Of a DNA stretch of 64,000 bases, positions 15,301-49,840 are shown one piece after another. Origin of the DNA: a virus. The stretch lies in IMG/VR virus record IMGVR_UViG_3300049844_000277, positions 36,520-100,519 of that record. The stretch is one strand, 5' to 3'. How positions within the stretch are numbered: the first letter of the stretch is position 1; each line of letters opens with the position of its first letter. The notes under the pieces are model-generated. The model was given only the letters and a program-made list of their open reading frames with translations. It was not told where the DNA came from and made no database searches. The position numbers and the translations under genes are program-made.

Positions 15301-18300
15301 AAGTACCCTCCCACTCCTCAGCGCTAACCATTACCCTCCGGCGGTCCGTGCCTATAAAAGTATCCGCGCGTACCTTTTCCCACGGAGTCCAGACATAGAG
15401 CGCCTTACCGTTACTTACGCGCTTACGGCGATACGAGACTACATGTTCGTGGTTAGGTGTTACACATAAATCAAGTTCACGGCTGCGCGTATGTATCAGA
15501 TCTCCGTCGAACGGCATGGATACTAACGCGGTCGGCTTCTGCCATTCAAATTCCCGGGTGTCTAAGTTAACCGTAGCGACACGAGTTTTTCCGGTGTACT
15601 TAGAAAAACGAACCCACCCTTTTTCTGTAAGAATATCTGTTTGATCATCGTAACATTTTGGCGTAGTTTTCCCGGTAATATGCTCGAGAAATCCCTTTAC
15701 GTTTCTCTTTTGGAGTTTGGGGTTATCTGATTCGTGCGTACCAATCACGGCGCCTACCGCGTGAAACAAGTTCTGACGAAGCTTCGCTTGTTCATCCGGC
15801 GGAAGAATTGGAGATTCAATTTGCTTCCGTAATGACTGATTATGAAGGATAGCGCTTTGGTACAGGTAGTTCGAATCACCTACTACGAGCTCAGAGCCAC
15901 TCTTCCCCGGAAGAATGGGTCGCATTATTGGAGGAAGAACAGGCAACTTGGATAGGACGTACGCATCTCCCGGCTTGAGCTCCTGCCGATTCAGCGCCTC
16001 AAGGAACTTCAACTGCTTTACTGCGTCATCTAGCTTCGTACCGGAGAGCGACTTAATAGAGTTACGGAGCTCCGCGATACGCGCCTTAACGTCGATAGCG
16101 TTAAGCTTTTTCTTTACCGCAGCGCCACCATTCGTATGGTGATACTGGTCAAAATCTTTCGCGGTCATCCCCAGCAAGCGACGGGCAGGGTCGGCGAATA
16201 CAGGATTTACAACGGGCTCGGCGAGCTCAATGTGGCTCCACCGTGTTCCAGTGGTACCGCCAGTAACCGCGGGGTCAAACAATCCCCCACGTTCAGCGGC
16301 CAAATCTTTAGCGCGTACTAACTTCTCATTTTGTACTTCGCCAGATGACATCCGTAGAATGTCTTTATCGGTAAGCGGAGAGAGCGTGCTGATACTTCCA
16401 CGCGAATCAACTTTGACCCCTGCGCCATGCAGCATACCGATGAACTTGTCATAAACGAACGACGACTTGAGTGGAGGGAGAGGCAGTCCCAGCTGAATCG
16501 CCCGCCAGAACTCATCGTTCTTCTGGCTCTTAATAGCCGCCGTCTCTCGAAGCACGTTCCGCGCATTATGTGCAACGAGGGCATTGAACTCCATTTTACC
16601 GACGGCTTTCGCGCCTTCGTCACCGCCCTTAATTGGCTGCTGATTAACGTCGTACGCACCCGTACCGCGCGCGGCGTAGTTGGTCTCCGTGGTCTTAAAC
16701 AAGCGAAGTACGTATTGCGGCCCAACCAGGATTCCCGGAATCTTTTTACCCGACACAGGGTCTATCAGCGTTTCCTTGTCCTTGACCTTGTGCTCCTTCA
16801 GTAAATCCTTTGCCCACTGTACGTTGTCACGCCCTGAAAAGTTTTCAACGACAATAGGTTTACCGATTTTCTTGGCAACCTTAGCGACACACGTCTCTAG
16901 TATTTGCGACGGATTGATTCGGGAAATTACGCCAGCCGAGGTATACAAAACCTCAATCGGCTTACCCGTCTCATCTTGAAGCATCTTGTGATCGGGAACA
17001 ATAAGGGAAACAACGCCCTTGTTTCCGTGGCGTCCTGTGTTTCCGCACCATACTGATTTACCATTTCTGCGAACATACAAAACATGTCCAGGAACAGTTA
17101 CACAGTAAACTGGTGATTTGTACGAATCTACAAAACATTCCACCTGACCCTTCTGTCGTTTGATATGTCCATGATTCACAGTAGGTGTTAATTTCGAATT
17201 AATAATTCGTACCTGCCAATAATCACGACACCAAAAATCTTTACCTTTGATTGTTTGATACCCTTCAGCTTTCGCTAACGACACATTAGCAGCTTTACCA
17301 ATATGTAGTGCGAGACGCTGAACATCATCCGCCAAACGTTTGGATGTTGTTTTGTAGCATATCGGTTGGCCATTTTTAGTATGACCGTCACCCCACATCA
17401 ACCAGTTGAATAGCGTCTCTTGATCCGCTCGAGACCAAGCGAACACCTCAAGCGGGATAAATTTCTCGTAAGACTTACCGAACTGTTTAAAGTACTGCCA
17501 ATATTGCTTGGAATGAATACGAACCTTATCACCTGTGTCCGTGAATAAAATCCCTTCCTCACGAAGAAACTTTTCTAACTGTTTTCGATTTGGCTGATTA
17601 ATTTGCGTAATCTCTATGCCGTAAGTACCGGATTCTTCAATCGTAATGAGATTACCTTCAGATAAAAACGCACCGAGAAGAGCGGCTAAGGTTTTAGTCG
17701 GAAGCGCTTTATCATCTAAAACACGTAAACCCCGGCCCCCTTGTCCCGCGCGCACAGTTATCGAGTCAAATACAAACGACTCAGGAGAGTGCCCCACCCA
17801 AATCCCATCCTTCTTATAACTGACCCTTTTTCCTGCGATTTCATACGCCGGTAAAAGTTGGAAAGATTTCTCGTTGCGCGGTTGAACGTACATATGATGT
17901 CCGTCGGTCACAAACAAATCTACCTGTTGTGATTCGATGCGGTACATCCGTCCGCCTTCTGGATACGAATGAATTGCGTCGGGCTCTAGGTACTCGATAT
18001 TTTCGCCATTCTGTAACGTACAAATCTTATCCGTAATACGTACATCCGCTATCGGTTTCCACCCTTCCCACGTGAGAACCTCAGTCTCTGCATCATAACA
18101 GAGCTTGTCTCCGACGCGCATCGGCTCACGGGTCTTAACCGTTACAACGACACGCTTGTCCGTCACATAAACATCCATGACTTCACCTTCGAAGTCGTGG
18201 TCCCACGTACGAACAAGTTCCCGATACGGCGTAACTAACGTCTTCTTTAGGTTACCGAGAAGCGCATCAGACGCCGAAAGTTTACCTCGTGTGACTCCAG

Positions 18301-22362: not shown

Positions 22363-25300
22363 TTATACAGGCTGATTTTGTTGCGCCATTTGCGCCTTCG
22401 CCTGCTGTCCTTGTTGGTTCTGAAGATCTTCCAGGCGTTGAATGACAACCGCATGCATCACAGCGTCTTCCTTACTTAAGCTATCCAACTGTGAACGCCT
22501 AGAACCAACATCCAGCCCCATGAGCTGCTGCACTATCTGGTCAGCCTGCGCGATGACCGCCTGCTGGTCGTAGTTGAGCCCAGGAGTACCTTGAGCCTGT
22601 AGCTGAACCTGCTGGGACAAGTTATTCTGTAGTTTTCGTAGCTCATTCTGGACGCGCTGATTGTGCCGCGCCTCATCAAGAGTTTCTTGTAGACGCTTCT
22701 CTCGTTCTGCGTCCAAATCAATGTCGAGTCGCTCTAGTATGGTAGTCATTGAGACGTACGAGGGACCCGCTTGCCCGGTAGCCATGCTGAGCAGTAATTG
22801 TTTAGACTCAGTGTCATCGACCATCTTCAAAGGCGTAAGTTTCGCCTCTATCTTCTCCCAGCCAAGATACCGGGACATCTGGTCGCTGTACCACTGTAGT
22901 AGGTCATTCATATCATCCGCGTGCCCTTGCGTTTGATTCTGAATGAGCCGGAGAGTTGCCTCCATGCCTGCTTTAGTTAGTCCACCGTAGAGGAACTCCT
23001 GCGGAATACCTAACGCAGCCATAATGCTCTTCTCAGCTTCTTGAAGCTCACCGAGCGTTAACATCGCCCGTCCATCGCCACCAAGATTGGATACACCAAG
23101 AGCTACTGGTGCCATCATTATGTGTAAGGGGTCACGTCGCCAGCGACGAATATTTTGTTTCATTTCATCTTGCCAACGCGCAAGAGAAATCATTTGCGTA
23201 AAATCTTGCTGTCCGTTTTGTGCGGGATGCAAGATACGCATTGGCACGACGTGCTCCAGCGCGATCGAATTTTTAGTAGCCCCACCCGCGATACAAAACG
23301 TGGAATCCTCCGCGATCTTGAAGTCAATGTATTGTTCCTCTTCCGACTCCTCTACCACGCTCACTCTCGCCGCAAAATAATCTTTCCAGAAAAAGCCACT
23401 CTTGCCGATGGTAATCTCTTCCGCATCCTCCCAATTCCATAGCGCGTAAAGCCGCTCTTGGGACGCACCGCTAACCCGTACGTGGTAACTCGGTCCGTTT
23501 GGGGTAATAACACGCCCATCAGCAAGCGCGTGAATCGGGGTAATGTGCTCACGAATCGTCGCAATACATCCTACGTGAAGGAGCATACGGTAAACATCAT
23601 ACGCAAGGCCCGCACTGGAGGTGGCGAGAGTATCTTGCCCTTCCCGCGTGTGACCATCCGCCTCCCAGAGACCTTTCAAGAATGCGAGCTTTACAGAATC
23701 CGGCGCATGAAATACTTCCGAAGGAACGCGCTTAACGCGCGCGGTTCCCGGAACCATGCCCTTGATGAGAGCCTTCACAATCACATCACACAAGGTAACC
23801 ATGCTACAGTTACCTCTCTGATTGTATCCACCGCACTCCAAGCCAAACTCTCGCCGAATTGCTTCCCGGAGGGGCTCTTCCGTCTTACTGCCCATCGCAA
23901 TCATAACGGTACGCTGGTTACAGGAACCATTTCCAACGTAATGCCCGAGGATATACGCGAAGTCCTCTGTCATCGGGCGCGTCGCGGGGAGGCGTTTTGG
24001 AACGGACCCTTCTTTCAGCTTCCTACGCGCAATCTTCCCAGGGACTCCCTTCACATGCTCACCGGCGCTCTCCGCCTCAAACGCCTGCGCGGAGGGTAAT
24101 GACATCGCGCTGTAAACGTAATTCTCGGTGTTCGCGAAACCGGTGTACTTAGCAACATCTACCTGCTGCGGCTCCGACGGAATTGTCCGGGGGTAGAGGA
24201 TATAATCACCCTTCTCGAACTGTTCCGCGGGACACATCACCTCTTCGTACAAATGCGGATTCTGAAGAATCTCCGACGACGTCTGCTTGTCTTTCGTATC
24301 CGACCGACGTGCGTCGCTTGTCCGTCGAAGGGTAAGGATGGGATGGTGCGGGGAAAATACCCCGCTGAGATGCCGAAGCCCCGAAAGCGTAATACGGCAT
24401 CCGATTTCATCATCCTTCGCATCCCGATACCACTTCTGCTCGACTGGACGCCACCGCCCGAGGTGTGTTCTCACCAAGTCGCCAACACGTACATCATCCG
24501 CGGGCACGAGACCGGTAGACGTCTCAATGAGTGTATCGAGACTGACGCACTCGTTCGCCTTCCTTAGCGTCATGGTGTAGAGGAAGAGCTTGATTGTCGA
24601 CGCAAGCGGAGGAAATCCCCACTGCTGGTCAATACCCGAAGGACTTGGAACCTTGATATGAAAAAGAGCGTCCTTCTCAAAACGAAACGTCTTGTTGTCT
24701 CGAATGTTTTCCAAGAACTCCATAGGCATCGAATTAATAAGATGCTTTGACCCCGATTTAACTTGGTCCTTAACGTCCTGCGGGATGTTATAGTAGTATA
24801 CAGATTGTCCCGTAATCGGATTGTAATCTATATCCATTAGCTTGGGATCCCACCGAATAATATGGACCCGGCTAGCAGCTAGAATCTTACGGTCAACGAC
24901 TGTACCACGCACATCTCGCTTGCAATGCAGGCAGTGGTAGGTGAAAGCCAGCGATTTCAGCTCAAACTTGTAATCAGTGTGCTGAATAGCAACGAGTTGC
25001 TGACAACTAGGACACTTCAGACTACGAACGAACGGCTTATAAATTGATGTAAAATGATTGCCATATATGTGCTTATCGAGCGACGCCATGAGAAGCGCAC
25101 TCTTAATCTTCAAAGTTTTTTCAAAAAGACGGCGATAGTTGCGCCGGAGTGCTTCATTCGATGTTCCGTACTCGAGGTCAGTTACGACGAGCTCTCCAAA
25201 TTTACGCAGAGCCGCGTAAACATGTGCACTATTATACATCAAATATTCGCACCATTTAAAGAGATCTTTTAGCTTTCTTGGTACAAAACCCGTTAGGAAG

Positions 25301-25374
25301 TCATGTGCAGGGTTTGGGTGTGAAGCCGCCCGGTCAAAAACGGACATTGTATCAGTGTTAGGAAGGTCAGCCAT
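22363..25374 (-). CDS. Putative portal / head-tail connector-like protein containing an intein (1003 aa precursor, about 576 aa spliced)
   Basis: Extein has the Q-rich C-terminal tail typical of portals (QQVQLQAQ...QQAKAQMAQQNQPV), and the gene sits first in the structural operon. N-extein has a CPSC...HCLHC zinc ribbon. The portal assignment is tentative. Confidence 0.45.
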   Translation of the reverse strand: MADLPNTDTMSVFDRAASHPNPAHDFLTGFVPRKLKDLFKWCEYLMYNSAHVYAALRKFGELVVTDLEYGTSNEALRRNYRRLFEKTLKIKSALLMASLDKHIYGNHFTSIYKPFVRSLKCPSCQQLVAIQHTDYKFELKSLAFTYHCLHCKRDVRGTVVDRKILAASRVHIIRWDPKLMDIDYNPITGQSVYYYNIPQDVKDQVKSGSKHLINSMPMEFLENIRDNKTFRFEKDALFHIKVPSPSGIDQQWGFPPLASTIKLFLYTMTLRKANECVSLDTLIETSTGLVPADDVRVGDLVRTHLGRWRPVEQKWYRDAKDDEIGCRITLSGLRHLSGVFSPHHPILTLRRTSDARRSDTKDKQTSSEILQNPHLYEEVMCPAEQFEKGDYILYPRTIPSEPQQVDVAKYTGFANTENYVYSAMSLPSAQAFEAESAGEHVKGVPGKIARRKLKEGSVPKRLPATRPMTEDFAYILGHYVGNGSCNQRTVMIAMGSKTEEPLREAIRREFGLECGGYNQRGNCSMVTLCDVIVKALIKGMVPGTARVKRVPSEVFHAPDSVKLAFLKGLWEADGHTREGQDTLATSSAGLAYDVYRMLLHVGCIATIREHITPIHALADGRVITPNGPSYHVRVSGASQERLYALWNWEDAEEITIGKSGFFWKDYFAARVSVVEESEEEQYIDFKIAEDSTFCIAGGATKNSIALEHVVPMRILHPAQNGQQDFTQMISLARWQDEMKQNIRRWRRDPLHIMMAPVALGVSNLGGDGRAMLTLGELQEAEKSIMAALGIPQEFLYGGLTKAGMEATLRLIQNQTQGHADDMNDLLQWYSDQMSRYLGWEKIEAKLTPLKMVDDTESKQLLLSMATGQAGPSYVSMTTILERLDIDLDAEREKRLQETLDEARHNQRVQNELRKLQNNLSQQVQLQAQGTPGLNYDQQAVIAQADQIVQQLMGLDVGSRRSQLDSLSKEDAVMHAVVIQRLEDLQNQQGQQAKAQMAQQNQPV
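23269..24549 (-). mobile_element. Intein (427 aa, LAGLIDADG type) in portal-like protein
   Basis: Starts CVSLDTLIETSTG (classic block A). Motifs ILGHYVGNGS and FLKGLWEADGHT. Ends YIDFKIAEDSTFCIAGGATKN followed by Ser. Boundaries verified on the DNA. Confidence 0.75.
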
Positions 25375-28836: not shown

Positions 28837-29439
28837 ATGTACTGTGCTACATGTAATACTGACTTACCAGAATCCGCGTTCGGAGATAGAGCAGAAACAG
28901 CCTCTGGAAAACGATATTATTGTCGAAAATGCGGAACCAAGAAAAACGTACACTGGCGAAAAAAGAAAGCGGCAGAAGGTTTCTGCTATTCATGCGGTAA
29001 GCGAAAACCTCTTAAAAATAAAACACGGTGTAGGCGTTGCATAGCAATAGCGAAAAAAAGATATCTTGAGAAAACACCTGAAATGCACGCGGAAGCGAAC
29101 CTGAAACAACGAACCAGGTTGGCCGCATTAAAACGGGAAGTTTACGCCGCGTACGGCGGTTATCGCTGCGCCTGTTGTGGTGAAAAACACGAAGAATTCT
29201 TGAGTATTGATCACATAGAAGGAAACGGTAAGCAGCACCGGAAGGAAGTAGGCAGTGGGGGACGCGGTAGTGCGTTGTACAGGTGGCTAAAGAAAAATAA
29301 TTTTCCACCGGGGTTCCAGATTCTGTGCATGAACTGTAACTTTGCGATAGGACACTACGAATCGTGCCCACACAACCCCACGGTAAAAAGAGTAGTTAAA
29401 CGCAGAAGAACCAGGGAACACACATGGCCATCAAGATGA
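28837..29439 (+). CDS. HNH endonuclease with N-terminal zinc ribbons
   Basis: CACCGEKHEEFLSIDHIEGNGKQHRK...ILCMNCNFAIGH (Cys/His-box with HNH spacing); N-terminal CxxC...CxxC ribbons. Confidence 0.7.
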   Translation: MYCATCNTDLPESAFGDRAETASGKRYYCRKCGTKKNVHWRKKKAAEGFCYSCGKRKPLKNKTRCRRCIAIAKKRYLEKTPEMHAEANLKQRTRLAALKREVYAAYGGYRCACCGEKHEEFLSIDHIEGNGKQHRKEVGSGGRGSALYRWLKKNNFPPGFQILCMNCNFAIGHYESCPHNPTVKRVVKRRRTREHTWPSR

Positions 29440-31259: not shown

Positions 31260-32093
31260 CTACTCAAGAAAAACATCTTGAGACGTTTCTACTTGATTTG
31301 CCAATAAGTATGTCTTGATTTGCGCGAGAGTGTCCTTCTTAATCTGCCGGACACGTTCAGAAGATAAATCTACTCTTCTGGAAATCTGCCGGAGATTTTT
31401 AGGCTCTTCTCTCGCGCCGTAATACGCCAGGACAATATATTTATCTCGTTCGCGTAGAGATAAGTTATCTAACGCACGACGTAACATAGTAAGGCCGTAC
31501 GTATTCACTAAATCACGTTCTAAGCTCACATCGCAGTGTCCAGCTACGTCAATAGCGCCAACAGCATCCAACGTAACGTGCGGCTGCTCTACATCAACAC
31601 CGCCACCACTCTTACGTTGCGCTCTTAACGCTTTCTGCTTATGGGCAGGGACACGAATAATTCCTTGACTATCTAACTCCTCTAGTATTTTCTCGCGAAC
31701 CCACCACGCAGCGTATGTAAGAAACTTAGTATTGCGTGAGGTATCAAAACGATCCGCCGCGACTAGAAGTCCTACGTTACCGGCGGATATCAGTGACGTC
31801 AATAGTTCGTTGTCGAACTTTGGTCCCTTAGTGCGATAAGCATATTCTTTCGCTACTTTCACAACAAAGCGAAGGGCTCCCGAAATAAGTCGATCACGCG
31901 CTTTAAAGTTTCGCGGAGTATTACACCTAGGACATCGGGTAGCTGAAGATCCCAAGCTATACGAAGACCTGCACGCAGAACAAGTGCGGTAGGCCTTTAC
32001 TAGATCGCGTTCCTCTCGTTGAGGAATGAATTCATTACCACGTAAATCAGCGAAATAAGCCGAGACTACACGGTCATTGTCCATTGGGTTCAT
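31260..32093 (-). CDS. Sigma-70 family RNA polymerase sigma factor with N-terminal zinc-ribbon insertion
   Basis: Region 2.2 GNVGLLVAADRFD; region 2.3/2.4 FLTYAAWWVREKILEEL; region 4 LSLRERDKYIVLAYYG...LRQISRRVDLSSERVRQIKKDTLAQIK. Inserted CSACRSS...CPRCN. Confidence 0.8.
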   Translation of the reverse strand: MNPMDNDRVVSAYFADLRGNEFIPQREERDLVKAYRTCSACRSSYSLGSSATRCPRCNTPRNFKARDRLISGALRFVVKVAKEYAYRTKGPKFDNELLTSLISAGNVGLLVAADRFDTSRNTKFLTYAAWWVREKILEELDSQGIIRVPAHKQKALRAQRKSGGGVDVEQPHVTLDAVGAIDVAGHCDVSLERDLVNTYGLTMLRRALDNLSLRERDKYIVLAYYGAREEPKNLRQISRRVDLSSERVRQIKKDTLAQIKTYLLANQVETSQDVFLE

Positions 32094-38793: not shown

Positions 38794-40398
38794 TTACGCG
38801 TAGAATTTCAGGTCATTAGACACAAGCTTATGTGCAAACCATCCGAACAGTTGTGCATGAAGACAATCGTCAGGTAATTGGGGACTGTGTCGCCAAACCT
38901 TTTTACCTGACGACGTAACTTCTTCATAGACGTTCAGAATATCTTTAATCGCTTCACGTGATTCTTCTCGTGGCGGATATACAACCGAACCCCGCTTCAG
39001 AAACATGAGATAGTTATCAATCATCGTCGTGCGGTCAGCGAGATACCTGTCCAAGCCATTGTGCTTTATCGGCTGACCTAACGCTCCGTACTGCATCATG
39101 TGCACGCGGTGAGCGCCTAGACGGTCTCGTAGCGTCGCATTAGGTAGTGCGCCTTCGCCAGCGTCACCGATGACCATCGCAACAGCGTAATGCTGGCAAA
39201 TCGCAGCGATATTCTCGACATCTGCGACGGCGTTGCTTCCTGGGTAAATTCGGAAGTAGAGCGTACGTAACTTCTGTGTTGCGGGATGAAAGCCCCACAC
39301 CCATAGGACCGTACGGCTAACGCCCGTCGTTCCGCCGCCCGACCAATCAACGCCGGCAACAGTAATCGAACAGCCTTCCAAATTTTTACCTGGCGTAGGG
39401 GATATCTGGGGGCCTGTGCACAGTGCTTCGAGCTCCTCCAGTGAAATAAGTCTACGACCTACGGCATCTGATACACCCAAGACCTCATTGCGGAACTTAG
39501 CCGCGGAAAACATGTCATGGTCACGGAGGATATCATCCCAACGCGCCTGAGCGTCCTCGACTGCACTCGGCTTTTCGGGCGTATTTTTTACACACGACGG
39601 GATGTTCAGCGGCATAATCAATTGAGAAATGTGAAAGCCTTTAATGGAGTGTTTTCCAGTACCCTTGTCGGCAATACGCATATCGATCCACTGCCCTGCG
39701 CGGGGATTTAAAACCTTCCCACAATTAAGACAAATGGGGCCGTGTTTACCGAGAGACTTCTCACTAATAACGAAGTTGTATTTACTACACCCCTCGCACT
39801 TCATCACCCATTCGCTCTGAGAAGACTGATCCCACAAAAATTGAATGGAGTTCTCCATAGTTTTCGGAGTTCCGGCGTAAGTTTCGAACCGGTACGCGGA
39901 ATTCTTCATACACGCCAAAATTACGGGAATGACACTGTCGTATAATACGTCCTGTACTTCGTCAAACAAACAACGGTCAGCGGAAAAACCACGCGCACGA
40001 TCCGCGTCATCGGTCGCGTACGTGAACCCGTTCTCTGACCCGTTCGTATACGACCGATGTAATACGCGATCCGCGTGATCTGGAGATAAGAAGTATTTCT
40101 TAATCAACGGCGAATACGACAATGTTTTACCAACACGCGTGTTAGAGAACAAGAGAGTTTGCTCGCGTGAAGGACTGGAATAGTAACTCTTGAAAAATGG
40201 GCGAGAAACAGATTCAGATATAATAAAGTTAGCCAGAGATGTGCTTTTACTGACCTGACGCGCAGTCATCAGAAGCGTCGATTTATAACCTCCGTCATAT
40301 ATCGATTTGAAAAATGGATAGTCTGTAAGACTAAAGGGAGCGCCGTCTAGCCATAATAGACGCTCAGCCACTTCCGAAAGACGTTTACTTCCAATCAC
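38794..40398 (-). CDS. terL: Terminase large subunit (ATPase plus RNaseH-like nuclease) with zinc-ribbon insert
   Basis: Walker A LLMTARQVSKST; Walker B CLFDEVQDV; YAGTPK coupling motif; CEGCSKYNF...CLNCGK ribbon; nuclease-domain GVDWSGGG...MVIGDAGEG. Confidence 0.85.
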   Translation of the reverse strand: MIGSKRLSEVAERLLWLDGAPFSLTDYPFFKSIYDGGYKSTLLMTARQVSKSTSLANFIISESVSRPFFKSYYSSPSREQTLLFSNTRVGKTLSYSPLIKKYFLSPDHADRVLHRSYTNGSENGFTYATDDADRARGFSADRCLFDEVQDVLYDSVIPVILACMKNSAYRFETYAGTPKTMENSIQFLWDQSSQSEWVMKCEGCSKYNFVISEKSLGKHGPICLNCGKVLNPRAGQWIDMRIADKGTGKHSIKGFHISQLIMPLNIPSCVKNTPEKPSAVEDAQARWDDILRDHDMFSAAKFRNEVLGVSDAVGRRLISLEELEALCTGPQISPTPGKNLEGCSITVAGVDWSGGGTTGVSRTVLWVWGFHPATQKLRTLYFRIYPGSNAVADVENIAAICQHYAVAMVIGDAGEGALPNATLRDRLGAHRVHMMQYGALGQPIKHNGLDRYLADRTTMIDNYLMFLKRGSVVYPPREESREAIKDILNVYEEVTSSGKKVWRHSPQLPDDCLHAQLFGWFAHKLVSNDLKFYA

Positions 40399-40426: not shown

Positions 40427-40627
40427 ATGAGCAACGTTGGACAGGAAAAAACTGTACAAGGCGAAAATTATTGGGACCGCTGCGTTATGCCACGGATTAC
40501 TCCGTACGAAGGATCGACTCTAAGCGTAGCATATAAGTGTTTCGAACTAGCCTGTAGAATCACACGATCCTTTCAACGCAAAAACATTCTTAGCGATAGT
40601 AGCGAATACGTAAGGGTCCTCGTGTAG
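40427..40627 (+). pseudogene. 66-codon ORF whose first 27 residues resemble the N-terminus of the MoxR-like gene at 41213; probable duplicated 5' gene fragment
   Basis: MSNVGQEKTVQGENYWDRCVMPRITPYEG versus MSNTAQNSVATTESYWDKYGIPRVTLHEA (12 of 27 identical, no gaps). The 3' end is overlapped by the antisense EndoVII gene. Confidence 0.35.
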
Positions 40628-41185
40628 TAAGCCGAAAGCAGCATTACAATTACCGTGCGCTAACCCCCGAACAACGCCTGTAGTGTGGTCATGGTCAATT
40701 TTCGGAACCTCAAAAAGAGGGCGATCGCATAACCAACAACGTCCCGACTGAGCGATAAGTAACGTATGCCATCGGGAAAGAGTTAGTCCGTAGGTGTGAC
40801 GTGCACGGTGTCCTGGATTAGCGAGACGCCACGCTTTTGTACGCGCTTTCGCCGTTGCCGAATTAGCACGGTAGTACGCAGCTTGATACTCTCTAATCTT
40901 ATCGCGGTTACTAGCGTAATATTTCGAAGCACGAGCCTTTACTTTCTGCGGATTAGCTTTACGGTAGTCAGCTCTTTGTAATCGGATCTCTTCCGCGTGC
41001 TCCTCCCTATAATTCTTACTGTACTTCTTAATCCGAGGCGCATTCTTCTTACTATATTTTTTCTGCTGTGCGCGAATTTCCTCACGATGCGCGTAATAGT
41101 ACTGAGCCGCCAATATTCTCGAGCAGGGCGCGCATCGCCCATCTTTGCGTTTCTCCGTACTCCCACACTTGTTACATTTTCCCAT
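40547..41185 (-). CDS. Recombination endonuclease VII family protein (T4 gp49-like, HNH-related) with basic repetitive N-terminal region
   Basis: CWLCDRPL...IDHDHTTGVVRGLAHGNCNAAFG (EndoVII zinc/His-Me signature). N-terminus has repeated KYSKKN/KYYASN basic units and a CNKCG...CAPC ribbon. Confidence 0.7.
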   Translation of the reverse strand: MGKCNKCGSTEKRKDGRCAPCSRILAAQYYYAHREEIRAQQKKYSKKNAPRIKKYSKNYREEHAEEIRLQRADYRKANPQKVKARASKYYASNRDKIREYQAAYYRANSATAKARTKAWRLANPGHRARHTYGLTLSRWHTLLIAQSGRCWLCDRPLFEVPKIDHDHTTGVVRGLAHGNCNAAFGLLHEDPYVFATIAKNVFALKGSCDSTG

Positions 41186-41212: not shown

Positions 41213-42496
41213 ATGAGCAATACCGCGCAAAACAGCGTAGCCACCACAGAAAGTTATTGGGATAAGTACGGGATTCCTAGAGTAACACTTCACGAAGCCC
41301 TTGCACAAATTGAACTCTCCATTATCTACAATCAAACAAGAGGAGTTTTTTGTTTAATCTCAGAAGCTGGAGAAGGAAAATCGCAAGGAATTCACCAACT
41401 AGCTCGAAAACACCGAAGGCGTGTGGTGGACATCCGAACATCGCAATTTTCTATGATTGGCGCAGGTGTTCCCCAGAGAGCAGACGAAACAGGGCACTTC
41501 AAAATCGCCATCCCAAATGATTACCCGAAACCGGGAGAAAAGTGCCTACTAGTATTCGATGAAATCAACCAAGGGCAACAACACGCCGTAGCGCTATTTT
41601 TCAAACTATTGGAAGATCGAGGAATCTACGACTACACACTCCCCAACGATTGCATCATCGTTGCTTTGATGAACCCCTCGACCGCGAACTACTCAGTCAC
41701 TAAAATTGAAACTAATTCAGCTTTTAACAGACGACTACAAAAACTCTACGTATACAACACTTTCTCCGATTGGAAGAAGCACGCACAAACAAACGACTTC
41801 CACTACACAGATGGGCTTCAGAAGCCCTGCCATCCGATGGTTGTACGGTTGCTCACAGCTACTCCCGCCATGCTGTATACCGCCAAGGATAGAGACGGGA
41901 ATAAGCAGTATGCCTGTCCCGCAACCTGGCAGACCGTATCTCTGTCGCTCTACAACCTCGCCGATGCGGGCGTGGACCTCACAAGTGAGCGAGCGGAGAA
42001 TCGAATCGCCGCGTCTATCAATATCGTCAACGCGCGGATGCTCGTGGAGTTCATCAAGAACAACGAGATACTCATCGGCCCGGAAGAAGTTCTGTTCAAG
42101 TACAAGCCGAAGAGCAAGCTTCGAGAGCGAGTGCTCGAAATACAAAAGGAGCCCGGCGGTACGTACACGCAGCTCGTAGAAGATGTCGCGCAATACATCT
42201 TCCGCGAGAGACCGGAAGCCGAAGTCATCGCGCCCAACCTCGTTCAGTTCTGGCACGATATGCCGGTCGAACAAGCGCAGCCGTTCTACCAAATGCTAGA
42301 TGCTGCCTGTCAGGCACACGGCGGTATCAAGGAGCCCAAGAACGTTCAGTACATGCAGGCGCTCACCACCGCGAATCGTCAGTATCCGCTGTGGAAAGAA
42401 ATCAACGACAGAATCAACCGCATTCACGACGAGGTCGAGAAGAAGATTCATGGGCGAGGGGTCGGGAAAGACCCCATGCTCAGTGCTCAAATGTAG
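41213..42496 (+). CDS. MoxR-like AAA+ ATPase
   Basis: Walker A SEAGEGKSQ; Walker B plus MoxR signature LLVFDEINQGQQHAVALFFKLLEDRG; downstream sensor-like region. Confidence 0.7.
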   Translation: MSNTAQNSVATTESYWDKYGIPRVTLHEALAQIELSIIYNQTRGVFCLISEAGEGKSQGIHQLARKHRRRVVDIRTSQFSMIGAGVPQRADETGHFKIAIPNDYPKPGEKCLLVFDEINQGQQHAVALFFKLLEDRGIYDYTLPNDCIIVALMNPSTANYSVTKIETNSAFNRRLQKLYVYNTFSDWKKHAQTNDFHYTDGLQKPCHPMVVRLLTATPAMLYTAKDRDGNKQYACPATWQTVSLSLYNLADAGVDLTSERAENRIAASINIVNARMLVEFIKNNEILIGPEEVLFKYKPKSKLRERVLEIQKEPGGTYTQLVEDVAQYIFRERPEAEVIAPNLVQFWHDMPVEQAQPFYQMLDAACQAHGGIKEPKNVQYMQALTTANRQYPLWKEINDRINRIHDEVEKKIHGRGVGKDPMLSAQM

Positions 42497-43223
42497 CGAG
42501 CTCTCGACGCAGATGCTTGGTTCTATCTTCGACGTAACGCCAAGCAACAGCTAACCGGCCAAGCTGCGCCCCCAAGGCGGAAATATCGAACGTACGTGCT
42601 TTTCGTTCGAGCTCCTCCTTGGGGAGCGCTTGCCAAGCCGCTTCGGTTTCTTTTTGAAGCACTAAGGAATCCGCGCTCAATTTACTCGTCAACTCTTCCA
42701 ACGCGAATCCCAAGCCGACGGGTGGAAGTACTAGTCCCTCGTCGAAGAGAGATACACCGACGTACGCAGCGACGCTCTCGTCATATTCAGGTCGAGTAGA
42801 TTCACCATCAGTCAGCGCAAACAAGAGCTCCGCCTCAAAAGCGGCCCACGCCATCTGCGCTGAATCACACTTCGGCACGTCGTTCGGACTTACCATCTCC
42901 TGCGTCAAGGCGTGCGTCGTTGCGCCGAATACGCGGTAATCCCAGTAAAAGCTGGGAGTCAGCGCGAGCGCAACACCCGCCATTAATTTATCTCGATTCG
43001 AGGTGTGGATGGGTAGTTCGTGCCATAGCGTTTCAGGCTCGTAAGCCGTGAAATGTGGACCCAGTAAATAACGGGCTGATACAAGTAAGGCTGTTGCAGA
43101 CGTATCTGCGTTTTGTAGCAACTCTTTAGCGGTCTGCTCGTGTACGGACGTAGGGATGCGGAAATATGCCGCATAGGCTTCCTTTACTGCGAGACGTTGT
43201 AGCTCAGAAAGCGTCATCGACAA
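42480..43223 (-). CDS. Hypothetical protein (247 aa)
   Basis: Intact ORF, antisense to the flanking MoxR and VWA genes. Confidence 0.45.
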   Translation of the reverse strand: MSMTLSELQRLAVKEAYAAYFRIPTSVHEQTAKELLQNADTSATALLVSARYLLGPHFTAYEPETLWHELPIHTSNRDKLMAGVALALTPSFYWDYRVFGATTHALTQEMVSPNDVPKCDSAQMAWAAFEAELLFALTDGESTRPEYDESVAAYVGVSLFDEGLVLPPVGLGFALEELTSKLSADSLVLQKETEAAWQALPKEELERKARTFDISALGAQLGRLAVAWRYVEDRTKHLRRELATFEH

Positions 43224-44239
43224 TGCGCCCTCAACTGAAGCTTCAAATCCAGAGGAAGCGTATCGACTACAACAGCAAGCTTGGATTGGTCAACTTCACC
43301 CCCGGGTGCTACCTCATCTCGAAGTTCCTTGCCGCCTAAATCTTCCCAGAAAGAAGCGGGAAGCGCTGCTATCTTCTTCATCGGAACAAACGTACCACCC
43401 AAATCAACAGAATGGGCCGCCTGCTTTTCCGTATTGAACACCGTCCTCACGGCATCCGGAAGATTTCGGTCGTAGTGCTTATCTAAACCTGACTGCTCGT
43501 CGAGCTCCGCGAGAACCGACGCAAACTTCATCAAGCCTTTTCGATCAAAAATTTCTACAGGCTTCTGCTTCAAGCCGTCCGCCAAAGTTTGATACGCTAG
43601 CTTAAATACCTTCGCATCTTCGGGAAGCTTGTTTGCACGGGCCTCAACCCAATCCCGCGCGGTCTTCGTATTCGAGACTACGAGTCCCGCGAGTTGTAGG
43701 ACCTCAGGGCGGAGCTCGACGTTAAGCTCATCTGCTCGCTTCACCAACTCCGCGCAGGCCGAGACACGGTGCTCCATATCCAACTTGGGCAAGGACTCTA
43801 CCAGTTCTTCTTGTGCCCGCTTACACTGCTCAGGATTCGTCACACGAAACAGCCTAAGAGTTGGTAAAAGATATTGATTATCCTCCGAAGCTACCTTCGC
43901 CGTCTCCTCTTGGAAGATAGATTCAGGAACGGCGTATACCTCTAACGCCTGCGCGATATTCGCGCGTACCTCCTCAGGAAGCTCCGAAGCTACCTTTGAG
44001 TACGCGTAGCTCAGCATGGCGTGCTCAGGTGTATGAAGAGGAAATTTTCGCTCCGACGGCCAAGCAAAGGCCGAATCGGGAAGCGCATCAGCTTCACTCG
44101 GCTCTATCGTCGCCTGCTTAACAAACTCCTCCATAGCAGGCATACGGTTGATCTGCCGGTACAAGGTACCAAATGCGGTATCGGAAAATTGGTCAATCGC
44201 TGACATTGTTGACCTCTGCAAGAGAAGACGTCGCGTCAA
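43214..44239 (-). CDS. Hypothetical protein (341 aa)
   Basis: Intact ORF overlapping the previous gene by 10 nt on the same strand. Confidence 0.45.
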   Translation of the reverse strand: MTRRLLLQRSTMSAIDQFSDTAFGTLYRQINRMPAMEEFVKQATIEPSEADALPDSAFAWPSERKFPLHTPEHAMLSYAYSKVASELPEEVRANIAQALEVYAVPESIFQEETAKVASEDNQYLLPTLRLFRVTNPEQCKRAQEELVESLPKLDMEHRVSACAELVKRADELNVELRPEVLQLAGLVVSNTKTARDWVEARANKLPEDAKVFKLAYQTLADGLKQKPVEIFDRKGLMKFASVLAELDEQSGLDKHYDRNLPDAVRTVFNTEKQAAHSVDLGGTFVPMKKIAALPASFWEDLGGKELRDEVAPGGEVDQSKLAVVVDTLPLDLKLQLRAHCR

Positions 44240-44251
44240 GAGTATAGGCGG

Positions 44252-45946
44252 ATGTTGGGAAGTGAGCCAGCATACTTCTTAAAGGATATCCAAAAAATGT
44301 CAAACCAGCCTGAACAAGAAAATGCACTCCAGAAATCGATGGTTTTCTGGGTGTCCCGCCGAGGAGCCTCTAACTACTGGGCCTCGGTCGTGAATGGAAT
44401 GAATAAGAGGTTCTCTAACGACGAAGGAACAATGTCGGTGCAGCTCACAGAGAACTGGAAATATATCCTCACCTGCCATCTTCCAGCGTTCGAATCGTGG
44501 TCGCCGAGAATGCGACTACTTGCTCTCGTTCACGAATGCGCTCACGTAGTTCTTCAGCACATTCCCCGGCTGTTCAAGATGTTGGCCAATTGTACAGACC
44601 CGTTCGTACGCACAGCCATCACATCGACGTTCAACTTCGCAGCAGACTTCGCGGCGAATGACGCAATCGTTCGACTTGAAGACGGATTCACAGAAGCGCA
44701 CAAAGCCTTCATGCACGTCAGTCCAGACGGAAAGCCGATTCCTCTCTCCAAAGAAGAAGAGGAGAAACTTCCCGGTGAATGGCCATTTCTTTTGCCAGAA
44801 GAATTTGGACTACCTCGTGGAAAGACAATGGAAGAGTACTTCGTGCTCATCCTCAAGGACCTCCCGAAGTTCAAACAACACGTCGAGGAGATGATGAAAA
44901 ACCTCGAACGTATTCTGAGTGAAATGGGGGAAGACTCCGAAGGAGAAGGAGAGGGAGAATCAGAGGATGGAAGTGGCGGCCAGGGAAAATCTCCCTCCCG
45001 TCGAAACATTCCACCTAAAGGGATTCCCGGCATTCCCGACGAAATCGTCAAGCACGCTCTCAACTCACCAGAGACCTTCGAGATGTTGCAGAAGGCCTTT
45101 GATAAGATTTCCAGTAAAGCACACAAGCAGTGGAACGAAAAAGCAAAGGAGATGACACCTGAGGAAGCAATCTCTGCGGGCAATAAGCTCAAGAAGCACG
45201 CGCAGACGATGGTCAGGGCCGCGAATGACCGCGTAAAGAGAGACCGCGGATTCATGCCCGGCGGAGTCCAGAAGATAATTGACGCGCTGATGGAGCCGGA
45301 CCAGATTCCCTGGGATTCAATTCTTCGAGACATCATTCACGGAGCAATAAGCGCTCGCGTTCAAGAGGAGATGGTCTCTCCGAATCTGTCTCTCATCAAC
45401 GAAGACTACTTGGAGCCGTGGCCTGGGCAAACATTGGAATTTGGCTTCAACATCACCTGGATGACCGATACCTCTGGTTCGATGGGTGATAGTGAATACG
45501 CGCGGGCGTGTAACTGCATGAACTCGCTGCTTGCGCAGAACAAGTTCGTATCCGTCACATACTGCGAGTGTGACGCCATCATGCAAAAGGAGGTGAAAGT
45601 CACAAACATCGAACCGCTCACAGAGGAATACTTGAGCGAGCTCCGTACACGCCGAGGATATGGAGGAACTGTCTATACGCCGTTCTTCAAGCGCGTAATG
45701 GGTGCGGATGAACCTCGGGATTGGATTGATGGCGCACCACGACTAGAGGATGCGCATCCCAAACCGGACTTAATGGTAATCTGCACGGATGGTGGCGTTC
45801 GTCTCATGGGAGAATGCTTCCCGAAGTATCGGCCAGAATGTCCCATCATCTGGTTGTTGATGCCAGGCTGCCATGCTACGACCGGAATGGATGATGTCGC
45901 GCCGGACCGGTTGATTCAGATGTATAAAATGCGGGAGGAGGAGTAG
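44252..45946 (+). CDS. MoxR-associated protein: putative HExxH metallopeptidase domain plus von Willebrand factor A (MIDAS) domain
   Basis: LALVHECAHVVLQH (HExxH); FNITWMTDTSGSMGDSE (DxSxS MIDAS motif); acidic linker EDSEGEGEGESEDGSGG. Confidence 0.65.
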   Translation: MLGSEPAYFLKDIQKMSNQPEQENALQKSMVFWVSRRGASNYWASVVNGMNKRFSNDEGTMSVQLTENWKYILTCHLPAFESWSPRMRLLALVHECAHVVLQHIPRLFKMLANCTDPFVRTAITSTFNFAADFAANDAIVRLEDGFTEAHKAFMHVSPDGKPIPLSKEEEEKLPGEWPFLLPEEFGLPRGKTMEEYFVLILKDLPKFKQHVEEMMKNLERILSEMGEDSEGEGEGESEDGSGGQGKSPSRRNIPPKGIPGIPDEIVKHALNSPETFEMLQKAFDKISSKAHKQWNEKAKEMTPEEAISAGNKLKKHAQTMVRAANDRVKRDRGFMPGGVQKIIDALMEPDQIPWDSILRDIIHGAISARVQEEMVSPNLSLINEDYLEPWPGQTLEFGFNITWMTDTSGSMGDSEYARACNCMNSLLAQNKFVSVTYCECDAIMQKEVKVTNIEPLTEEYLSELRTRRGYGGTVYTPFFKRVMGADEPRDWIDGAPRLEDAHPKPDLMVICTDGGVRLMGECFPKYRPECPIIWLLMPGCHATTGMDDVAPDRLIQMYKMREEE

Positions 45947-46265: not shown

Positions 46266-46652
46266 ATGTCGCTATACAACTCGCTTTTCGGCCAAGAAAC
46301 TCTGGCCCCAGTTCTCCTAAACGCGCTGAACCTGTCTCGAGAAACCGTCGGAAGATATCGAGACTGTTATCTGGCGAAGGGGGAAGACTTAGGAATGCGC
46401 ATCATCGTATTCACGCGAAACGGTGGCGGTAATCGTGAAGACTACGAAGAAGTAACTCGCTATCTTCAAGCACATCCCCTGTACGTTCGCGACTGGGATG
46501 AAGAGTACGATTGTACTTACGCGTCGTACGAGTTTCGCGTACCAGAGTCGCTAGCCAAGGCCTTGGAAAAATTTGATGAGGAAGAACTCATGCCGCAGTA
46601 CGCACCGATGGAAAAATTCAAAGCGGTAATTGAGAAGCTCAACAGTCAGTAA
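46266..46652 (+). CDS. Hypothetical protein (128 aa)
   Basis: Intact ORF followed by a CT-rich tract and a strong terminator. Confidence 0.45.
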   Translation: MSLYNSLFGQETLAPVLLNALNLSRETVGRYRDCYLAKGEDLGMRIIVFTRNGGGNREDYEEVTRYLQAHPLYVRDWDEEYDCTYASYEFRVPESLAKALEKFDEEELMPQYAPMEKFKAVIEKLNSQ

Positions 46653-46684
46653 CAGTCCTCCTCCCCCTCCCCTTCCCCCTCTAG

Positions 46685-46721
46685 GGCTTCTACGTACGCG
46701 TAGGAGCCCTTTCTTTTTCTT
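46685..46721 (+). terminator. Rho-independent terminator
   Basis: GGGCTTCTACG-TA-CGTAGGAGCCC (11-bp stem with one G-U pair), immediately followed by TTTCTTTTTCTT. Confidence 0.7.
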
Positions 46722-46728
46722 AGGTACC

Positions 46729-47331
46729 ATGGACCTCTACTGTCTTCGTGTTCGTAGGAACATCGCTGGACGTAAATTTCCCTTCGATAGAGTGTATCTC
46801 GCGAAATACGGGGATCACGTTATATTCAAAAGATTATTCAGGTATGCCTTCATCCTTCCCGTTGAAGGCGTACTAAAGGAAACGCTGTACTGTCTCCCCA
46901 TTGAAGACAGCATGACGCACGCATTCGACAGAGTAGAAACGCCTGAGAAAATTCCAGATGTAGAGTGGAAGACGCTCATCGACTCGACGGACTGGGTACT
47001 CGCGGTACCGATTCTATCGAAGTACGTGACCGCTAACATGCCGAGATATATTATTGCCAAGTCCACGGTGCCCCGAAGAGACAAGAAAAACTCTAACGCG
47101 TGCGCAAACCCGTTTCCAAACATGACGTACTTGCAGACACCCGAGCAAAACATTCGGCCAATATGTGTCGCATGTCCGAACTTTATCCAGCATCAGAACG
47201 GTCACTGCGAACTTGGAGATAAGCTCTGCTACGACTCTCTTTCCCTGGGAATCCGAAATCACTTTGAAGAAGGCATGATGGTTCCTCCTGCCCCGGAAAA
47301 AGAACAAGTGACTGAGGAGGGGAACGACTAA
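46729..47331 (+). CDS. Cys-rich hypothetical protein (about 200 aa), first gene of the RT operon
   Basis: ATG at 46729 after the terminator (the track ORF begins earlier, at 46630, inside the CT tract). CVACPNF...HCELGDKLC. Stop overlaps the RT start (TAATG). Confidence 0.5.
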   Translation: MDLYCLRVRRNIAGRKFPFDRVYLAKYGDHVIFKRLFRYAFILPVEGVLKETLYCLPIEDSMTHAFDRVETPEKIPDVEWKTLIDSTDWVLAVPILSKYVTANMPRYIIAKSTVPRRDKKNSNACANPFPNMTYLQTPEQNIRPICVACPNFIQHQNGHCELGDKLCYDSLSLGIRNHFEEGMMVPPAPEKEQVTEEGND

Positions 47332-48467
47332 TGCCTGTCTACAAACAAAATTTCCTTGAGCGAATTGAAGTACGCGAGCCACTCATCAAAGGCGTACCCC
47401 TTATCGTCGATGACTGGAGTCTGGCATTCCAGCTAGGTTTTACGGGTAAGACCGCGTGGTACATCATCCATGAACGCGCCAGTATGTACCGGGAGTTCAT
47501 GCTGAAAAAGAAGTCTGGGGGTCTCCGTAGAACGTTTGATCCAACTAACCTCCTGCGCATTTTCCAGAAACAACTACGCGCACGCATTCTGTTCCCGCTC
47601 GTATCTCGCCTAGGTCCGCACGTAGCCGCGTATCAGGTCGGTAAGAGCACGCTTGATGCGGCAAACTGGCACCTGCGCGAGTGTAAAATCTGCGACGACA
47701 CGACCCGTCCCGGCACGAGTCCTGTGAAACATGAGTGTCCTCGACGGGGTGTGAAGTTCAAAATGGATTTGAAGGATTTCTTTCTATCGACTCGTCGGTC
47801 CTGGATACGACAGTATTTCCACGAAGTCGTCGGATACAATCACTACGTCTCGTCGATTCTGGGGCACCTACTGACGACGAGTTATAAAGATGAGCGGAGA
47901 AAAGACAGGAACGGCGTTCCGCCAGGCGCATTAACAGCTGGCGATATTTGTAATCTCATCTGTGATTGGAAGATAGATCAACCGCTTATGGCGGCACTAC
48001 CCACAGGCTGGAAGTACACACGGTACGCCGATGACTTGTATTTCTCGTACGACGCACCCCTTCCATCAAAAGAAGTAAACAAGATAATCCGACTAGCCTC
48101 GGACACCATCACCGGCTCCGGTTACCGGGTAAATTGGAAAAAGCTCCAAGTGCAACACTGGAGCCGGCCCCAGCGAGTACTAGGTATCAATATCAACAGA
48201 AAACTAAACATCCCTGCGACTGAGTACCGTCGAATGCACATGATTCTGTATAAAGCAAAGAAGCATGGATTCCAGGCGCAACTTACGTGGGCAAAGAAAG
48301 CCGATGTTCCGGAACTTCACGCCTGGATAACCGGCAAACTGAATTACTACGCGCGATTCGCACCAGATAAAACCAATAAACTACAACGGCTTTATCAAGA
48401 AGCGAAGGACGCGAATCCAAGCGAAGAGGCCGCGGTGTTCAACTTTGGAACCGGTGCAAACCCATGA
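47331..48467 (+). CDS. Reverse transcriptase (RT domain motifs 1-7 plus thumb GxxNYY), 378 aa, no endonuclease or maturase extension
   Basis: Motif 1 KKKSGGLRRTFDP; motif 2 AAYQVGKSTLDAA; motif A KFKMDLKDFFLS; motif B' GVPPGALTAGDICNLICDW; motif C TRYADDLYFS; motif 6 YRVNWKK; motif 7 RVLGININ; thumb WITGKLNYYARF. Insert CKICDD...HEC between motifs 2 and A. Confidence 0.8.
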   Translation: MPVYKQNFLERIEVREPLIKGVPLIVDDWSLAFQLGFTGKTAWYIIHERASMYREFMLKKKSGGLRRTFDPTNLLRIFQKQLRARILFPLVSRLGPHVAAYQVGKSTLDAANWHLRECKICDDTTRPGTSPVKHECPRRGVKFKMDLKDFFLSTRRSWIRQYFHEVVGYNHYVSSILGHLLTTSYKDERRKDRNGVPPGALTAGDICNLICDWKIDQPLMAALPTGWKYTRYADDLYFSYDAPLPSKEVNKIIRLASDTITGSGYRVNWKKLQVQHWSRPQRVLGININRKLNIPATEYRRMHMILYKAKKHGFQAQLTWAKKADVPELHAWITGKLNYYARFAPDKTNKLQRLYQEAKDANPSEEAAVFNFGTGANP

Positions 48468-49840
48468 ACATGTACACGGTTTGCCACGCGTACGATGCAC
48501 GTAACGCAAGGTCAGATGCACTTGCGCTTTTGTTCAATACTCCCGACACTAAAAAAATAGCAGGAATCCCTGAGCTCTCCGAAATATATCCCAACGGATA
48601 TTTCGTCACTAGTATCTCCGACATAAAATCAGGAGACCCCTACAGACACTCATACTACCAAAGACAAAGATACTCCCACAATCCTGCTCCTTACACGATG
48701 GTATCCATTTTCGCTACGTACCCCCGTCCAGATGAGGCAAAACTAAACAGCGAAGATATTTGCTTCTTCGTAAATGGAAAAACATATCAGGTTAATCTAC
48801 GTACCCGCTACAACCACTGCCTGTCGTTGTTCAAAGCGGTAGGTTGTGCGCAATGCCCTGATAACGGGCTCCCCTGCGTATCCCAGGAAGCCGAAGAGCT
48901 AATCGAGCTTGATAAGAAACTCACCGACGCCGAAAGGCCTGTGTATTTCAACGAGACAGCGTTCTCGAACAATACCGAGTTCTTGAACGATATCGACGAC
49001 ATAGAGTTCTTAAAGTACCTACAAAGAAAGCACCCGTCCCTCGGTGACTTCAAACTTGTCAAACCCGGATCAACAAGTCCACGTTCGTTCCATAGTACTT
49101 TCCGCCCGTACTGGGACCACGACTTTTCGCTAGTTCCACGTAATGAAAAAGAAAAGTCAGACGCGGCATCTCGAGCAGCACGGACACGTAAGTTCAAGAA
49201 GGAAGAATGTCCTCAGTGCGTCATCAAAGATAGCTGCTCGAATGCATCCCGGTGTGATGGTAGATATCCGCCACAGGAGACGATTATCAAGCAGGCGAAT
49301 GCGGAGCTTACTGCGGCGATAGCCGGGTCGATACTTCCCGAGTGGGCGATATGGGAAGTTGCTCGAGGCGCGGGACAAACAGCAAAACATTCCAGGTGGC
49401 ACATCATGCTCACCGGAATACTATTAGACCGATATGGAAATGGGTCTCTCCGCGCTACAGTTCACCGCGCAAAAACAGACATCGATGAGTACAAAAGACT
49501 CAATACGTACGAAGAAATCGCTGAAGTATTTAACTTAGCGAAAACGGAAAAAGATGTGCCGCCCGAGCGTGGACCACTGAGGAGCTTTGAGCTCCGCGCA
49601 GTTTGGTGGTTGGCGCTTCTTGCTCGCTCAACCGCTCGAAGGGCTACAGGTTGGGGAGGTTCCCGGTACGTCGTAAGTATCGGTGTAGATGAGAAGACCG
49701 GTATCTCGCTCGAATGGACAAACGGGCGAGATATATCCCACTGGCACAGCAACAATCTACGTAAGATTGAAGATGTATCGAGGTGCCTCACGCCGAATAG
49801 TTTGTACGGCGTAGCTAAGGAACAATTCGTTCAGCGGTAG
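48464..49840 (+). CDS. RT-associated hypothetical protein (458 aa)
   Basis: Start overlaps the RT stop (ATGA). Contains a CPQCVIKDSCSNASRCDG cluster; no recognisable catalytic motifs. Confidence 0.55.
   Translation: MNMYTVCHAYDARNARSDALALLFNTPDTKKIAGIPELSEIYPNGYFVTSISDIKSGDPYRHSYYQRQRYSHNPAPYTMVSIFATYPRPDEAKLNSEDICFFVNGKTYQVNLRTRYNHCLSLFKAVGCAQCPDNGLPCVSQEAEELIELDKKLTDAERPVYFNETAFSNNTEFLNDIDDIEFLKYLQRKHPSLGDFKLVKPGSTSPRSFHSTFRPYWDHDFSLVPRNEKEKSDAASRAARTRKFKKEECPQCVIKDSCSNASRCDGRYPPQETIIKQANAELTAAIAGSILPEWAIWEVARGAGQTAKHSRWHIMLTGILLDRYGNGSLRATVHRAKTDIDEYKRLNTYEEIAEVFNLAKTEKDVPPERGPLRSFELRAVWWLALLARSTARRATGWGGSRYVVSIGVDEKTGISLEWTNGRDISHWHSNNLRKIEDVSRCLTPNSLYGVAKEQFVQR

Follow-up and report, generated by a model that had tools for sequence, protein, structure and literature searches.

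In cells, RavA-ViaA, CbbQ-CbbO, NorQ-NorD and midasin/Rea1 all combine an AAA+ ring of the AAA_5/AAA_3 class with a partner that carries a VWA domain with a metal ion-dependent adhesion site (MIDAS), and these cellular partners have no fused peptidase. In jumbo phages (group 2.2), a MoxR ATPase accompanied by a vWA cochaperone with an N-terminal metallopeptidase was described, and virion assembly and structural-protein processing were proposed as its task (Iyer et al., 2021; PMC7824862). Here we analyse such a pair, with the peptidase fused to the VWA partner, in a 64,000-nt stretch of viral DNA (positions 36,520 to 100,519 of the IMG/VR virus record IMGVR_UViG_3300049844_000277), which is called the window below and numbered from its first letter. 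A sequence-only reading of the window had pointed to a MoxR-like ATPase gene and a HExxH-metallopeptidase/VWA gene separated by two opposite-strand genes, orf247 and orf341. It took the outer two for a known functional pair, which agrees with the phage description above, and took the whole for either an insertion into the pair or a four-gene unit. In our reading the locus probably consists of two independent gene modules that were interleaved in ancient times next to the terminase gene and are fixed in one phage clade. The pair itself is known; what is novel is its clade-wide fixed split by two antisense genes.

The distant tblastn matches of the window's ATPase (23-29% identity) are in cultured phages, three of which were inspected. 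In cyanophage S-TIM5 the ATPase gene (gp057) is followed directly by a gene for a DUF2201_N + DUF2201 protein (gp056), while the two genes have one small ORF between them in the N4-like Pseudomonas phage Zuri (gp42/gp44) and four ORFs in PA5oct (gp149/gp144). Moreover, we collected 80 IMG/VR loci with ATPase and VWA genes from other phage groups, 74 of them informative. In all 74 the ATPase gene precedes the VWA gene on the same strand; the two are direct neighbours in 37, and the remaining 37 pairs are 0.26-3.3 kb apart with mostly same-strand ORFs between. Thus, as to the view that the two genes are normally adjacent, their common direction was upheld throughout but direct adjacency in just half of the loci. 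The phage pair elsewhere (PHROGs 1297 and 1314; S-TIM5, Zuri and PA5oct) shares with the window the two families, the ATPase-first order and the orientation. On the other hand, two conserved opposite-strand genes split the pair in the window, and its ATPase gene converges on them with overlapping stop regions, unlike the known phage pair.

The split ATPase-VWA pair and its conservation

The main features of the locus are as follows (window positions, strand in brackets).

38794-40398 (-): TerL, large terminase subunit (PF05876 GpA_ATPase 5e-8; phrog_675 2e-41)
41213-42496 (+): ATPase gene, 427 aa, AAA_5-class (MoxR/midasin-like) AAA+
41369-41383 (+): Walker A GEGKS, ATPase aa 53-57
41546-41572 (+): Walker B LLVFDEINQ of the ATPase, with LLVFDE at aa 112-117
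42480-43223 (-): orf247 as the mechanical ORF, 247 aa
42480-43217 (-): orf247 from the conserved ATG at 43217, 245 aa, second gene of the antisense pair
43214-44239 (-): orf341 as the mechanical ORF, 341 aa
43214-44206 (-): orf341 from the conserved ATG at 44206, 330 aa, first gene of the antisense pair
44252-45946 (+): VWA gene, 564 aa, DUF2201_N HExxH metallopeptidase fused to a DUF2201 VWA/MIDAS domain
44531-44545 (+): HECAH of the VWA protein
45467-45484 (+): DTSGSM of the VWA protein

All four ORFs of the sequence-only reading were confirmed in their places, and the motifs LLVFDEINQ, HECAH and DTSGSM that it had named were located as well. The starts of orf247, orf341 and the VWA gene were shifted from the mechanical ORFs after alignment with relatives, the probable start of the VWA gene being M16 at 44297. 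The segment said to be wedged between the pair (1.7 kb with two antisense ORFs of 247 and 341 aa) is indeed there; it measures 1755 nt, and its longest plus-strand ORF does not exceed 82 aa. The ATPase and orf247 genes are convergent, with a 17-nt overlap of their stop regions. The orf341 stop codon (43214-43216) directly abuts the orf247 ATG, so that these two genes are probably translationally coupled. TerL stands head-to-head with the ATPase gene in related loci that extend that far. The distance between the two starts is ~17-54 nt in relatives without the endonuclease insertion described below, and seems to leave room for little besides two ribosome-binding sites.

Eight IMG/VR relatives, six of them with contigs of ~179-194 kb, share the order TerL(-), ATPase(+), orf247(-), orf341(-), VWA(+), and orf233, a reverse transcriptase gene and orf458 come after the VWA gene where the contigs extend far enough. 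Three more distant lookups keep the order with identity down to 51% for TerL, 27% for the ATPase and 22% for the VWA protein; the arrangement is therefore not recent. A census seeded with orf247 gave 80 loci, 63 in the window's clade and 17 linked to a portal gene. The split arrangement VWA / orf341 orf247 / ATPase / TerL was found in 56 of the 56 clade loci that reach both flanks, and a homologous locus without orf341-orf247 was not found among them. Judged by its TerL and portal families, the clade is one of uncultured phages of ~165-195 kb that are distant kin of Salmonella phage Arash.

Some clade loci differ in detail. The close relative L001 has, at 9994-11000, a pair of small paralogues of 204 and 131 aa between orf341 and orf247 on the same strand, each beginning MNFY.LG.RD..EKFAVS, and ~470 extra nt separate orf341 from the VWA gene in L068. 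An ATPase called on the other strand in L015 was shown by tblastn to be a gene-calling error. The ATPase hit is spread over two ORFs in four loci (L037, L041, L042 and L059).

The ATPase matches phrog_1297 at 2e-35 and has both a Walker A (GxxGxGK[ST]) and a Walker B (hhhhDE) motif. On its own it reaches E 0.17 and 12.3 bits against AAA_5 (PF07728), under the 22-bit cut-off. In a broadened alignment of 28 sequences (A6), a limit of E 0.01 is reached by 26 members against PF07728 and by seven against PF07726 (AAA_3, the core MoxR family model), and G53, G55, K56 and E117 are invariant across all 28. Searches of the PDB with single sequences and close-family profiles gave no usable match for any of the four locus proteins; for the ATPase only the broadened profile worked. 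With A6, midasin AAA domains came first (1e-18), then McrB, dynein and RNF213, and there was no bacterial MoxR structure in the best 60 of 195 matches. The VWA gene, 1.76 kb downstream on the same strand, provides the linkage to a VWA partner. As far as profiles and motifs reach, the label 'MoxR-like' is supported to the level of the AAA_5 class, strict MoxR membership lying beyond that.

The VWA protein matches PF13203 (DUF2201_N, putative metallopeptidase) at 8e-7 with 29.4 bits, over the 23.2-bit cut-off, PF09967 (DUF2201, VWA-like) at 3.5e-5 with 24.3 bits, just under the 26.4-bit cut-off, and phrog_1314 at 3e-29. Precomputed PF09967 matches exist for its homologues in L009-L011 and L015, with a weak one in L016. 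Thus the MoxR-like and HExxH/VWA assignments hold at the profile level (phrog_1297 and A6 for the one, PF13203 and phrog_1314 for the other). The residues of HECAHVVLQH (H94, E95, H98, H103) are spaced like the invariant H76, E77, H80 and H85 of isolate homologues, and HExxH is kept in L001-L008. DTSGS (aa 406-410) is followed further downstream by GYGGT and CTDGG, in the MIDAS order of the invariant D267/S269/S271, T328 and D350 of isolate homologues, metal binding being only predicted. In the homologues of S-TIM5, Zuri and PA5oct, the invariant positions have the same order and spacing for HExxHxxxxH, DxSxS, GGT and TDG, as compared by eye without a joint alignment. An acidic, Gly-rich low-complexity linker (EGEGEGESEDGSGGQG..., aa ~218-255, 44900-45010) joins the peptidase and VWA domains. 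The linker differs in length and sequence among relatives, and with the next helical segment it makes the protein ~165 aa longer than isolate homologues. A tblastn search of 50,697 phage records with the VWA protein (default limit E 1e-5) gave nothing.

With regard to annotation, S-TIM5 gp056 (L013 5957-7105), Zuri gp44 (L014 6139-7302) and PA5oct gp144 (L012 8934-10118) are called 'HNH endonuclease', a label that phrog_1314 also carries. All three are DUF2201_N metallopeptidases with a DUF2201 VWA domain (E 1e-28 to 4e-43), which exposes a recurrent database error in the three GenBank phage records checked.

The antisense pair, its promoter-like box and its occurrence elsewhere

On the sequence evidence orf341 and orf247 are real genes; they are conserved at the amino-acid level, and searches for homologues brought up 284 proteins in the case of orf341 and 83 in that of orf247. 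Both products are acidic (pI ~5). The AlphaFold2 model of orf247 is all-alpha and confident (pLDDT 95.7). The model of orf341 is helical, multi-domain and elongated, of moderate confidence (pLDDT 77, pTM 0.42), and the protein has a very conserved C-terminus and a weak DUF6582-like motif. Neither protein has a recognisable DNA-binding motif or a significant sequence match in Pfam, NCBIfam, PADLOC or the PDB. Fold searches of the PDB with the two models were not informative, orf341 giving generic helical bundles only and neither model resembling a solved small terminase, and the single BFVD match of the orf247 fold is an uncharacterised phage protein. Thus one of the linked families has a confident model with no informative match among solved structures. 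In the 50,697 phage records, neither tblastn with the two proteins (limit E 1) nor a similarity search at the DNA level found anything.

The antisense pair has a promoter-like element of its own:

44241-44248 (-): conserved -10-like box CCTATACT, ~35 nt upstream of the orf341 ATG, probable promoter of the orf341-orf247 unit

Counting TATAAT-like boxes with at least five of six matches within -75 to -5 of a start, we found TATAAT or TATACT ahead of orf341 in 38 of the 42 distinct loci. The background is 7% of random 70-nt segments, and the figures for the other genes are 11/48 for TerL, 7/45 for the ATPase and 11/41 for the VWA gene (16-27%). In several inspected relatives, the -35 position that matches this box overlaps the ribosome-binding site and start codon of the VWA gene. 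The motif AAGTATAGG upstream of the VWA gene was considered as a shared ATPase/VWA promoter and rejected, since it stands upstream of the ATPase gene in 2 of 49 loci only. It is not enriched in the window, and most plausibly it represents the -10 box of the orf341 promoter, which points the other way. No shared motif supported co-regulation of the ATPase and VWA genes, and because the antisense genes split them, these two cannot be one operon and must be transcribed separately. A generic promoter and terminator scan gave counts no higher than in shuffled sequence. Rfam found no RNA family between 38 and 52 kb, the single match at E <=1 (a snoRNA family, 22 vs 80 bits) being a chance one.

The antisense pair also occurs with no MoxR-VWA pair nearby. 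In 17 of the 80 loci from the census, genes resembling first orf341 and then orf247, zero to two further genes and a ~630-650-aa portal gene follow one another on the same strand, with no ATPase, VWA or TerL match within 6 kb. The portal-linked gene corresponds to Arash gp204 ('portal protein'; tblastn 2e-57, HMM ~1e-124), and it was recognised through Arash only, Pfam and PHROG searches of the genes flanking these loci being uninformative. Arash itself has homologues of orf341 (gp242; hhalign 94.3%, E 1e-7, 268 columns) and orf247 (gp243; hhalign 93.6%, E 2e-7), adjacent and in the order of orf341-orf247, and the same adjacent pair was found in Vibrio phage D181 (VPHD181_0303-0304). These phages share the TerL and portal families with the window's phage, and their two proteins, of 289 and 159 aa in Arash and of 283 and 159 aa in D181, are shorter than those of the window. 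A genome-wide scan of Arash ORFs of at least 60 aa found no homologue of the ATPase, the VWA protein or the reverse transcriptase, and in the regions of D181 that were covered the pair has neither an ATPase nor a VWA homologue beside it, whereas the pair in the window is flanked by both. Conversely, no homologue of orf341, orf247 or TerL lies within 5 kb in any of the 80 ATPase-VWA loci from other phage groups. The two modules are thus independent of each other, and judged from this distribution the antisense pair is older than its association with the MoxR-VWA pair. In purified Arash virions, Gp242 was detected with 21 unique peptides and 550 spectra and Gp243 with 12 unique peptides and 359 spectra (PMC10585845). 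The orf341 and orf247 proteins are probably particle-associated or act in head and portal morphogenesis.

Readings of the locus

MoxR-VWA systems such as RavA-ViaA, CbbQ-CbbO and midasin are the basis of our working model of the first module, in which the ATPase ring would remodel a client that the MIDAS domain holds via an acidic residue and the fused HExxH peptidase would additionally cut it. The second module would be the orf341-orf247 pair with its own -10-like box, serving head or portal morphogenesis or forming part of the particle. Since the order and orientation of the ATPase and VWA genes are as elsewhere, insertion of a cassette into an ancestral ATPase-VWA operon is the most economical history. 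A single rearrangement in the clade ancestor would have put orf341-orf247, inverted, into that operon, so that the ATPase and VWA genes now each face, start to start, a gene for packaging or for the virion. Our results establish no new mechanism, and the two modules may still have acquired a clade-specific functional coupling or client relation.

Several points weigh against this reading of two interleaved modules. The ATPase itself falls short of the Pfam thresholds. The homology to Arash and D181 consists of modest profile matches (hhalign ~94%; HMM E 1e-5 to 1e-6), strengthened mainly because two independent matches fall on adjacent genes in the right order. The genome-wide scan covers Arash alone, and the 17 portal-linked loci and D181 were covered only in part. 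The Arash virion list is permissive, with 116 proteins including ribonucleotide reductase and primase (PMC10585845), so that the particle association of Gp242 and Gp243 is just a hint. Moreover, gene order is conserved in the clade over the whole block, including the reverse transcriptase gene, so that fixation is a poor guide to function in either direction.

Under another reading, a mobile or accessory cassette of two genes entered an adjacent MoxR-VWA pair recently, as a simple insertion. This would account for the opposite strand and the own promoter-like box of the two genes, and it could start from the direct adjacency seen in half of the loci of other groups. We give it almost no credence. 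The test set for it by the sequence-only reading, loci lacking both genes, failed, as none of the 56 clade loci that reach both flanks lacks the cassette, and the order persists in relatives whose ATPase is only 27% identical. Repeats flanking the cassette were not found, and GC is 0.47-0.53 in 2-kb windows across the locus and 0.47-0.55 over the whole window, that is, without a clear composition break. In addition, the cassette corresponds to a core pair of Arash-like phages, and the actual mobile insertion of the locus is the endonuclease VII gene at 40547-41185. Thus, what survives of the insertion proposal is an ancient event, and synteny contradicts a simple or recent one. We also think it improbable, though less so, that orf341 and orf247 are small terminase-like DNA-recognition parts of the packaging motor, with the ATPase gene lying antisense inside a packaging operon. 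The pair precedes TerL and runs in its direction, both in the clade and, if the record is circularised, in Arash, it is upstream of the portal gene in the 17 linked loci, no small terminase was identified in the window, and a -10-like box at orf341 only means that TerL could be reached by read-through. However, neither model is like any solved small terminase or other solved structure, and both proteins are acidic and without a recognisable DNA-binding motif. A small terminase is not expected in purified virions, where the Arash homologues are listed.

The four genes could instead form a dedicated unit in which the MoxR-VWA-peptidase machine has orf341 and/or orf247 as its clients, substrates or adaptors. 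One example would be a virion or scaffold-like protein of acidic character that is held by the MIDAS domain, remodelled by the ATPase and trimmed by the HExxH peptidase. Their bracketing would then persist because selection favours inheriting the genes together and coordinating their expression. All 56 loci keep the arrangement unchanged over deep divergence, the two proteins are acidic as MIDAS ligands tend to be, and orf341, helical and elongated with its conserved C-terminus, resembles a scaffolding protein. The processing of virion proteins suggested for the phage pair (Iyer et al., 2021; PMC7824862) and the homologues in the Arash virion proteome fit as well. As an obligate system, such a unit is not supported by the phyletic pattern, since the four families do not strictly co-occur: the antisense pair has no ATPase or VWA gene nearby in 17 loci, none in the whole of Arash and none in the D181 regions covered, and in 80 loci the MoxR-VWA pair has neither orf341 nor orf247 within 5 kb. 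Many phages manage with one module only, and neither is thus dependent on the other. There is no common promoter motif, the -10-like box being specific to orf341, and shared ancestry alone predicts conserved order. We therefore consider the dedicated unit unlikely, though it is the strongest of the alternatives to two interleaved modules. Somewhat less likely again is that the MoxR-VWA pair was captured as an assembly or maturation machine for orf341/orf247 or for terminase and portal, and that the zig-zag layout is itself regulatory. Only orf341, and not TerL, is preceded by a conserved -10-like box, from which we infer that a transcript from the orf341 box may read antisense across the ATPase gene to TerL. 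If so, this read-through would couple late packaging-gene expression to chaperone shut-off.

The phage MoxR/peptidase-VWA pair has no known client, and orf341 and orf247 are concrete candidates here. Two families without annotated function are now tied to cultured phages through Arash gp242/gp243 and Vibrio D181 0303/0304, and these phages make genetics feasible for both families.

Homing endonucleases and neighbouring genes

Between TerL and the ATPase gene, the window has two further features.

40427-40505 (+): remnant of the original ATPase 5' end, 28 nt from the TerL start, translating as MSNVGQEKTVQGENYWDR...
40547-41185 (-): endonuclease VII / HNH-type homing endonuclease gene (PF02945 2.9e-13; phrog_2914 2e-18)

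The endonuclease gene sits within the former 5' end of the ATPase gene and has a tblastn match in one of the eight closest loci (L003). The remnant that it cut off comprises the ~26 first codons, and its 28-nt distance from TerL is the canonical one. Compared over 75 nt, it shares 65-75% of positions with the ATPase 5' ends of relatives, against 53-60% for the functional 5' end at 41213. Because the endonuclease gene occurs in one close relative only and has left this remnant, it, and not the antisense pair, is the mobile insertion here. The ATPase 5' end at 41213 looks like a recoded replacement, the footprint of a homing event.

The portal homologue (22363-25374, -) has 1003 aa, compared with ~620-650 aa in three relatives, and contains Hint and LAGLIDADG domains; the portal protein thus appears to be interrupted by an intein that includes a homing endonuclease. 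Among the replication genes lies a further gene of the endonuclease VII/HNH type (28837-29439, +; phrog_2255 2.6e-14). Together with the insertion at 40547, these elements suggest heavy homing-endonuclease traffic in this genome.

Downstream of the VWA gene, a retron-type reverse transcriptase gene (47331-48467, +; PADLOC RT_XIII 1.6e-46, RVT_1) is flanked by the conserved orf233 (46630-47331) and orf458 (48464-49840), and at least 38 clade loci have it close to the VWA gene. A diversity-generating retroelement was considered and rejected, as there is no template/variable repeat pair and the reverse transcriptase types as retron-like. No Rfam retron RNA was found near it. A sigma-factor gene is located at 31260-32093. 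Moreover, two genes on the minus strand, at 12377-20887 (2836 aa) and 9086-10885 (599 aa), match phage multisubunit RNA polymerase beta-like PHROGs, and in Arash, too, the portal is followed by a giant RNA polymerase subunit, the polymerase subunit being the one that dominates the virion proteome.

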